64,000 bases of DNA, from positions 2,294,001-2,358,000 of the forward strand of contig OX597827.1 in the NCBI GenBank assembly GCA_951406725.2, in the 5' to 3' direction. Numbering within the stretch: the first letter of the stretch is position 1; every line of letters begins with the position of its first letter. The translations under genes and the position numbers were made by a program. Source of the stretch: Octopus vulgaris (Eukaryota). The notes beneath the pieces were generated by a model that made no database searches, had not been told where the DNA came from, and was given only the letters and a program-made list of their open reading frames with translations. Positions 40,068 to 61,237 of this stretch are shown piece after piece.

Positions 40068-40111
<44 letters not shown>

Positions 40112-40113
<2 letters not shown>

Positions 40114-40356
40114 GGAAGAAGGTTTGAAAATGCAATTTAAAAGATGTTTATTTACTTAACCGGTTTCACTCTTTGGAAAAAGATTGTCAAAAGTAACATG
40201 TAGAAGTTTGTAGGACCAAACTTCTACATGTTACTTTTGACAATCTTTTTCCAAAGAGTGAAACCGGTAAAGTAAATAAACATCTTTTAAATTGCATTTT
40301 CCAACATTCTTTCGTTTATAATTCCACTCGTGCGGTACCCCACAACTCCACTTTGT
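40112..40356. repeat. Foldback element with 99-bp arms, 6-nt loop and one-sided extension
   Basis: 40112-40210 is the reverse complement of 40217-40315 with about 4 mismatches; (TA)n on both flanks. Confidence 0.95.
40231..40275 (+). ncRNA. Hammerhead-like motif with U3-A8 core (mirror copy on the minus strand at about 40152-40196)
   Basis: TTACTT TTGACAA TCTTT ttcc AAAGA gt GAAAC CG GTA AAGTAA: 6-bp stem I, 5-bp stem II, ACCGGT palindrome. Confidence 0.65.
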
Positions 40357-40403
40357 TATATATATATATTTATATATATATGCATATATATATATATATA
40401 TAT

Positions 40404-40590
40404 TCTTTTATTCTTTTACTTCTTTCAGTCAATTTTTACTCCAGCCATGCTGGAGAACAGCCTTTTATTTGAAGAAATCGACCCCTAGACTTATTCTTTG
40501 TAAGCTAGGTACTTATTCTATCCTTGTCTTTTGCCGAACCGCTAAGTTACCGGGACGTAAACACACCAACATCGCCTGTCAAGCAATGTG
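40404..40590 (-). mobile_element. Family B SINE 3' half
   Basis: GCCATGCTGGAG...ACTTATTCTTTGTAAGC...GGGACGTAAACACACCAAC. Other 3' halves at 17005-17165(-), 41880-42070(+) and 42170-42360(+). Confidence 0.8.
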
Positions 40591-40609
40591 TGTGTATGTA
40601 TTTTTAAAG

Positions 40610-40927
40610 ACTCCGCCGGTTACGACGACGAGGGTCCCAGCTGATACGATCAACGGAACAGCTTGCTCGTGAAATTAACGTGCAAATGGCTGAGCATTCC
40701 ACAGACACGTGTACCCTTAACGTAGTTCTCGGGGATAATCAGCGTGACACAGAGAGTGACAAGGCTGTCCCTTTGAAATACAAGTACAACTCATTTTTGC
40801 CAGCTGAGTGGACTGGAGCAACGTGAAATAAAGTGTCTTGCTCAAGGACACAACGCGTCGCCGGGAATCGAACTCACAACCTTACGATCATGAGCCGAAT
40901 GCCCTAACCACTAAGCCACGCGCCCTC
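40610..40927 (-). mobile_element. Family D SINE with tail type 2
   Basis: Clean head GAGGGCGCGTGGCTTAGTGGTTAGG...GAGTTCGATTCCC, then core, then tail ending CCCTCGTCGTCGTAACCGGCGGAGTC. Confidence 0.9.
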
Positions 40928-41239
40928 ACTATCCAGTGTGTATGTATACATGTGGTATGGCTCCAAAAAGTAGAATAGCACTCGATCAGCTAAGGGAGTA
41001 AATATAATGTTTATAATAAAATCCACAAGTCTTGATAACCCAGGCTAGAAATACTCAGCAATATCAAATGGAAGATCCTCTCCAAAGCCTGACCCTGCAT
41101 TAACGCTTCCAAAAGATGTTCAGTATGTTCTTTGGAAAACTATATATCTTGAACCTGAGAGCCTCCAGTGACTACGTAAATTCGAGGAACGAGATTTGGT
41201 TTTGCATGTCCACATTTTTAGAAATATATCTTGGTGGAA

Positions 41240-41492
41240 TTTTAAAATAGGCCACCAGACACATAGTAAACTATTGATATCCTGTCTACATCTTTTTGAC
41301 ATTGGTTTATTTGTAACGTTGGTTATCTCCCTTGTGTTTGGTTTGTCGTCTTCCTTCTCAGCGTCCCTTGTTTAAACGTTCTCACCTTAAAAAAGAAATT
41401 GACAAACCGTCTTGTACTCAGCTTGAAAATTGAGGAAACAAATTAATGTTTAGACTAGGAAACTCTGAGTAACCGTATTTACAAAGAATTTT
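41240..41492 (+). mobile_element. Possible very old PLE GIY-YIG remnant
   Basis: Pieces IGHQTHSKLL...HLFDI and LKIEE/KLMFRLG/IYKEF resemble PLE endonuclease C-termini; requires several frameshifts. Confidence 0.3.
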
Positions 41493-53161: not shown

Positions 53162-53880
53162 TTATTTTGCCATAGGTTGTGATGTGTGTGGTGTGTGTGT
53201 GCTAGTGTTCCATTCTTGTTTTCTATTTAAGCTAGGTTTATCTTCTATTATTTGTGTAGCTTCCATAATTTGTCTAAGCGTTGCGTCTGTTCTATTTGTG
53301 GACAAGATTTTAACGTCCATGTTGCTGAGTGAGCTCCGGTATAGAACCGATGAGCTCTTCTCTTCTTTAAGTTCCCTCCAATGCTCATTTACCCGCTCTC
53401 CTATGCTCCGTGCTGTCTCCCCTACGTACGTCGTTGTCTTGTTTTTGCACCGTCCCTCTGTACATCTTATACTATAGACAACATTCCTAGATTTACAGTT
53501 TGTTTGTGGGCTAAATCCACCTACAATACAGTACTTATCAATACACAGGGTTCTACTAAAAGGGTAGGTTCTACGGATTTTATAGGGTAACCTGGCATTT
53601 GTACAACCTTAATTATTAGCTTAAGTTTGTATAGGGCCCCTCTCAAGCGGTAGTTCGCCTCTAGGGTTGGTGTCGACGAACATGACACTCTGGTATTTGT
53701 GGCTATCATACCATGATTTGGCCTTCCCTATTTTCTTCTTTGTTTTTACCATGGTTTTCCATGACTTGCTCCTATAGAGTGGGCAAATCCCATTCCTATC
53801 ATTACGTATGATAGTTTCAAACTTCCTCGTGGCTCCTTTATAGACTCTGATCCTTTCTCTATGGCTGTTCTGGTCAGTAA
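53162..53880 (-). mobile_element. Penelope-like retroelement 3' fragment: linker, Cys-rich knuckle and GIY-YIG endonuclease (frameshifted pseudogene)
   Basis: Manual minus-strand translation of the open frame 53608->53162 (no early start codon, so absent from the ORF track) gives RTYPFSRTLCIDKYCIVGGFSPQTNCKSRNVVYSIRCTEGRCKNKTTTYVGETARSIGERVNEHW...LRQIMEATQIIEDKPSLNRKQEW, with VVY at 53474-53482 and YVG at 53420-53428. Upstream frames give KVVQMPGYPIKS and GICPLYRSKSW...KSWY...YQSVMFVDTNPRGEL, a PLE-type linker. Two frameshifts, near 53575 and 53650. Confidence 0.92.

Positions 53881-60834: not shown

Positions 60835-61237
<403 letters not shown>

Follow-up and report, generated by a model that had tools for sequence, protein, structure and literature searches.

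A foldback in the Octopus vulgaris genome as the probable inverted footprint of a Penelope-like retrotransposon with U3-A8 hammerhead-like motifs

The locus lies within a 64,000-nucleotide stretch of Octopus vulgaris DNA (contig OX597827.1, positions 2,294,001 to 2,358,000; hereafter the window, whose own numbering is used throughout). It consists of an inverted repeat (40107–40210 and 40217–40320) with 104-nt arms that are 95% complementary and separated by a spacer of 6 nt. An earlier sequence-only reading had described a foldback with 99-bp arms, which is the same repeat minus its overlap into the neighbouring (TA)n tract. Folding of the region as a whole gives −149.2 kcal/mol (z = −26), and 0 of 200 shuffled sequences were equally stable. 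The arms differ at 5 of 104 positions; all five are unpaired in the hairpin and none is compensated. At three of the five, the other letter is carried by the entire aligned contig depth or almost all of it, so that these three are private changes (the depth at 40217–41350 comes from 4 of 20 runs, from contigs only, with no contig spanning the whole stretch). Next to the foldback, positions 40445–40930 hold very high-copy SINE-like repeats with a weak tRNA-like match (40854–40923, minus strand). When the 150 longest complex open frames of the window were surveyed, none was recognised as a host exon, and only one of the 150 had a Pfam match, to a GIY-YIG fragment. The features of the locus are listed in Table 1.

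Table 1. Features of the foldback and its flanks, in window coordinates.
Feature	Position	Strand	Basis
(TA)n microsatellite, left side of the target	40071..40112	.	sequence; displayed tailed ends of copies also enter (TA)n
Inverted tail-less copy of the PLE 3' end, inner end point ...CTTCCGTATATA	40112..40210	-	inverted repeat and comparison of 30 loci
Minimal type I hammerhead motif with a U3-A8 core; cleavage predicted after U17 (40158)	40152..40196	-	
TAGG, 4-nt filler at the inversion junction, no match to family sequence	40211..40214	.	comparison with copies
AC matching family sequence, next to the filler	40215-40216		
5'-truncated PLE 3' end, sense relative to the element ORF	40215..40320	+	in long copies the same sequence follows the RT-EN ORF at ~2.0-2.2 kb
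Minimal type I hammerhead motif, U3-A8 core	40231..40275	+	
Stem I of the plus-strand motif	40231-36/40270-75	+	
Core of the plus-strand motif	U3 40237, A8 40242, U10.1 40244, U11.1 40259	+	
Stem II of the plus-strand motif	40245-49/40254-58	+	
GAA, palindrome ACCGGT and A17 of the plus-strand motif	40260-62, 40263-68, 40269	+	
36-nt PLE 'tail', one end only	40321..40356	+	copy comparison; described in PMC8557442 and PMC11167929
(TA)n microsatellite, right side of the target	40357..40403	.	sequence

The right arm and the adjoining 36 nt correspond to the 3' end of a high-copy repeat, with 1870 first-look candidates; the 40 copies that were scored are 97–100% identical. Exact matches to the motif number 2417 genome-wide (control 0), and the 5' truncation point differs from copy to copy. 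Long copies encode an ORF1 and a protein with the order RT, CX4CxxC and C-terminal GIY-YIG, which bears out a Penelope-like element (PLE) as the origin, as the sequence-only reading had supposed. Pfam finds RVT_1 in the element ORF (E 1.5e-7), and its direct scan of this ORF gave no GIY-YIG match; the GIY-YIG region was assigned by eye and through homologues annotated with PF01541. At E<=1e-50 there are 1691 protein homologues, and those among the matches listed carry RT annotation, many with GIY-YIG. The linker that joins RT to EN is CGRPNCKTC or a close variant in 19 of 19 rows, within the CX2-5CxxC form common to Neptune and Nematis. The motif lies on the sense strand, ~2.0–2.2 kb 3' of the RT-EN ORF, and in one tandem (L072) directly 5' of ORF1. 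This upstream ORF1 overlaps the following frame in long copies, which we take to be a Neptune trait.

Judged by these sequence features, together with 5' truncation, partial tandems, an inverted 5'-truncated copy and a tail at one end, the element is an EN+ PLE of the Neptune/Nematis type as defined by Craig et al. (2021; PMC8557442), and its clade is likely Neptune. The foldback would very probably be a 5'-truncated insertion of this element, an ordinary inverted stub. Other traces of PLEs were seen in passing. A second, older mini-foldback from a sister subfamily of the same PLE occupies 60940–61140 of the window; its arms are ~85% alike, carry C17, are truncated through the hammerhead core and are flanked by microsatellites. 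At 53165–53608 (minus strand) lies a GIY-YIG fragment of another PLE-like element (Pfam E 7e-4, below the cut-off), with no tblastn match to the studied family at E<=1e-4. A chimeric tandem (L080:4459-4555, minus strand) has the terminal motifs of two PLE families 96 nt apart, which suggests that one family inserted into the end of another. PLEs were also found within bacterial MAG or symbiont assemblies (L224-L226; P0015, P0032, P0045), where they are probably host contamination.

An inverted partner lies at most 1.5 kb upstream in 10 of the 30 copies examined, the studied locus included, and the tail is absent from all ten partners. With a spacing of 96 nt, the studied locus is the shortest of the ten (208–710 nt in the others); longer inverted pairs reach up to 9 kb and up to 99.6% identity. 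The expectation that PLEs often leave inverted terminal copies is borne out here: within (TA)n, a tailed 3' end is joined to a copy that is inverted and has no tail. The same traits are described for Neptune/Nematis PLEs, which combine a C-terminal GIY-YIG, a CX2-5CxxC linker and 5' truncation with an adjacent inverted 5'-truncated copy, a 30–40-bp tail at one end and a preference for (TA)n targets (PMC8557442). For the Poseidon element PAc of Anolis, the PLE protein cuts and extends both target strands in vitro, the sequence separating two RT start sites makes up the tail, and cleavage needs a 3-8 pair (PMC11167929). PAc differs from the octopus element in its clade, its C3-G8 core and a hammerhead that overlaps the ORF start.

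Very probably, the 245 bp consist of the 3'-terminal ~100–140 nt of a high-copy PLE, present twice and back to back; we infer by analogy that a single abortive insertion into a (TA)n tract produced both copies. Following the route reported in PMC11167929, the PLE protein would cut both target strands, and reverse transcription primed at two nearby RNA sites would give one tailed and one tail-less cDNA. Both cDNAs would stop after ~100 nt and then be joined head to head with the 4-nt filler. The hammerhead-like motif would be the normal terminal motif of the element, carried along, and the hairpin at this locus a by-product of insertion.

Each arm carries the motif claimed for it, TTACTT TTGACAA ...GT GAAACCGGT(A/T) AAGTAA, on its own sense strand, and GAAACCGGT occurs three times in the window against 0.18 expected. 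The 5-bp stem II first proposed (TCTTT/AAAGA) proved to be in the wrong register, as 2 nt remain between it and G12. Across subfamilies, the register that is maintained opens with U10.1·U11.1 and continues with CTTTT/AAGAG (C-G, then U-A and U·G pairs). Its first four pairs form in 30, 27, 28 and 29 of 30 distinct motifs, compared with 27, 11, 28 and 25 in the earlier register; 20 of the loci compared had been chosen by hand because their stems vary, and the search pattern itself dictated the 3' GT. The core N3UGANN8A...GAAA keeps a Watson-Crick 3-8 pair as U3-A8. Position 7 varies freely (C/U/A). At position 17 the subfamilies have A, U or C, with G17 in 168 of 11,654 U3-A8 matches. As in the minimal PLE hammerhead, stems I and II form pairs that covary between families, and the palindromic 15-16 segment of that class is present as ACCGGU, with a self-duplex of −8.3 kcal/mol.

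The motif is a weak folder. A single arm folds at the level of shuffled sequences (z +0.2 and +0.6), the monomer hammerhead fold of the isolated motif is barely stable at −1.3 kcal/mol, and the minimum-energy fold predicted for two molecules differs from the double hammerhead. At E<=10 there are 55 Rfam matches, and no hammerhead family is among them. On the hairpin, Rfam gave only miRNA-type and sRNA models, all below threshold, and the miRNA matches are generic hairpins.

Within the studied PLE family, 2173 of 2223 copies have U3-A8 (controls 0). Genome-wide, the patterns preceding GAAACCGGT gave 11,654 matches for U3-A8 (control 134), 455 for C3-G8 (control 56), 369 for C3·A8 (control 95) and 436 for U3·G8 (control 84). 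When any two central stem III bases are allowed, U3-A8 reaches 22,786 (control 3,266) and C3-G8 6,418 (control 1,580). After subtraction of the controls, ~19,500 excess U3-A8 matches stand against ~4,800 for C3-G8, about 4:1 across unrelated families; these are pattern matches without a stem filter in which a few large families dominate, and copies are not independent events. The proposal that U3-A8 reflects covariation and not decay is upheld by its family-wide presence and by single changes being far rarer than double ones. The sequence-only reading had staked this proposal on most copies having neither CTGANGA nor unlinked changes at 3 and 8. Most copies are indeed U3-A8, but unlinked states do exist, as small minority lineages that have spread.

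Three further PLE lineages, with endonucleases 53–58% identical to that of the studied family, have kept U3, while their stems I and II have been wholly replaced and yet still pair. A young PLE subfamily with U3·G8 (L079-L082, e.g. G000:C1:90096587) stands beside a U3-A8 subfamily; it has a 2-bp stem II and inverted pairs, and one alignment of its L079 copy with the RT-EN protein extends over 754 aa. A CTGATAATTGATGTAAGG...GAAACCGGT repeat, which makes up a large part of the C3·A8 matches, was rejected as a hammerhead since the 2 copies examined have no stem I. The EN tree contains no C3-G8 lineage from this genome and so cannot date the core switch. Other U3-A8 families have the palindrome ACATGT or ACTAGT. 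A separate C3-G8 hammerhead-like family (L043, L051-L055, L085) has a long, bulged stem II closed by A·A, and the stretches examined for it gave no RT match.

In 82 related loci from other organisms, 37 motifs were found in 32 loci (reversed control 2): 32 are C3-G8, 5 are U3-A8 and none is mixed. Three of the five U3-A8 motifs are in sense orientation in distant PLEs, and two are weak antisense matches. Relatives with at least 40% protein identity and a sense motif have C3-G8 in 8 of 8 cases, with ACCGGT in 5/8 and a U·U closure in 5/8.

The same genome holds a 359-bp retrozyme-like tandem family (L036-L060, L096-L124, e.g. G000:C1:20002279) with C3-G8, U3-A8 and C3·A8 subfamilies and no sequence similarity to the 3' end of the window's PLE. 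Among the first 100 of its 337 matches, 70 are U-A, 21 C-G, 9 C·A and 0 U·G. With positions 3 and 8 masked, the C-G and C·A rows group together (98/99) as a single clade nested in the U-A rows, in a tree of 34 rows that has a divergent U3-A8 subfamily as outgroup and leaves out the truncated L112. From this sequence tree, C3-G8 appears to be derived in the family. The C3·A8 lineage has spread to several loci. A role for C3·A8 as an intermediate, allowed by a 39-row tree, was set aside: the outgroup tree is compatible with either order of C·A and C-G, and CpG decay from C-G also fits. Another tandem of ~360 bp (G000:C1:8134351-8135463) has a U3-A8 core, stem II GGGG/CCCC and the palindrome ACGCGT.

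Several other accounts of the locus were weighed against a PLE insertion. Inverted arms with TA flanks superficially resemble Tc1/mariner MITEs, and C>T and G>A changes, which are favoured in an AT-rich genome, could have turned CTGANGA into TTGACAA by decay. Both readings, a MITE or other TIR DNA transposon and a decayed core, are extremely improbable. An element of the MITE kind would have a fixed length, symmetric terminal inverted repeats and no RT partner, whereas the copies here show variable 5' truncation, a tail at one end only and a link to an RT-EN ORF, the last of which refutes the transposon reading; decay is contradicted by double changes that exceed each single change more than 25-fold. 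Scarcely more credible is the idea that the locus is a functional RNA switch, alternating between a long dsRNA (a substrate for ADAR or Dicer) and an active ribozyme. Long, near-perfect hairpins are dsRNA substrates, and the 104-bp hairpin would be one if transcribed. The alternation put forward from the sequence is not supported: there is a penalty of +72 kcal/mol for imposing the hammerhead fold, and the antisense arm, being 5' of the ribozyme arm, is transcribed first whichever strand is read. Any transcript of the locus is predicted by folding to zip into the dsRNA hairpin, leaving the ribozyme unable to fold. The uncompensated arm differences and the absence of a recognised host exon among the frames surveyed also speak against a switch, and since the same inverted layout recurs in a third of the copies examined, no local selection is needed to explain the hairpin.

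With insertion of a PLE as the preferred reading, the motif would likely work as a ribozyme in active elements. There it would act slowly as a minimal hammerhead, two copies pairing by way of the self-complementary ACCGGU; the paired motif would cut after GUH and process tandem transcripts, and U3-A8 would keep the core Watson-Crick pair. The competing view accepts the PLE insertion and holds that the U3-A8 motif is no longer a catalyst: it would be a structural or protein-binding signal whose 3-8 pair is kept for folding only. We regard this as possible and the less probable of the two. It is favoured by the weak stems and by reports that minimal PLE hammerheads are weakly active (PMC4209133) and that ribozyme mutants of Anolis PAc insert unaffected in vitro, with no reads ending at the cut site (PMC11167929). 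Lineages with mismatched cores have also transposed, and catalysis may be dispensable for mobility because the mixed cores U3·G8 and C3·A8 have spread. Against it stand the avoidance of G17, a free N7 and the retention of the other core letters, all expected of a catalyst, although the search patterns also fixed the retained letters. Moreover, U3-A8 is reported to be active in vitro, and of the mismatches U10.1-U11.1 is the best tolerated (Perreault et al., 2011; PMC3088659).

Among the closest published counterparts are the minimal hammerheads of Cercyon-type PLEs in Schistosoma mansoni (Cervera and de la Peña, 2014; PMC4209133). Like the octopus motif, they are type I, lack a true stem III, have a palindrome at 15-16, lie in PLE terminal repeats and include a U3-A8 core; opposite-strand pairs 100–700 bp apart are described, and monomers are inactive while dimers have low activity. 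The Schistosoma consensus differs in an extra nucleotide after A9 and in G10.1-C11.1, in place of which the octopus motif has U10.1·U11.1 followed by C-G. U3-A8 is the minority form in Schistosoma (~1,300 matches versus ~2,000 canonical) and the majority form (~4:1) in octopus. Among natural core variants, U3-A8 covariation and a stem II starting with U10.1-U11.1 are both described, as in the octopus motif; the two together in a PLE terminus were not found in the parts of that paper available (PMC3088659). The searches in PMC8557442 used a CUGANGA-based descriptor or core string, and the available portions do not contain an octopus U3-A8 family. Further context is provided by PMC6765202, PMC7229834 and bioRxiv 10.64898/2026.07.22.740005. 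U3-A8 PLE hammerheads, opposite-strand pairs and the U·U closure are already published. The literature consulted gave no report of U3-A8 dominance in a cephalopod genome, and Lunse et al. (2017) may already cover such variants; the ~4:1 ratio of U3-A8 over C3-G8 across unrelated families and the spread of small mismatched-core lineages were not found in print.

The studied locus is an ordinary, likely dead PLE footprint, and the survey of its family matters modestly. Most of the PLE-type hammerhead motifs present would escape a search of this genome with standard CUGANGA descriptors, and the genome's homologous natural C-G, U-A, U·G and C·A cores could be used to probe the role of PLE hammerheads. 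A broader proposal is tentative: that the core switched between C3-G8 and U3-A8 in several independent mobile lineages (a Neptune-type PLE radiation, the 359-bp retrozymes with C3-G8 looking re-derived from U3-A8, and others), that U3-A8 is now dominant with ~20,000 copies missed by CUGANGA surveys, and that mismatched cores stayed mobile. If this is true, the families would offer a natural series in which to ask whether the mobility of PLEs and retrozymes needs cleavage or only the fold.
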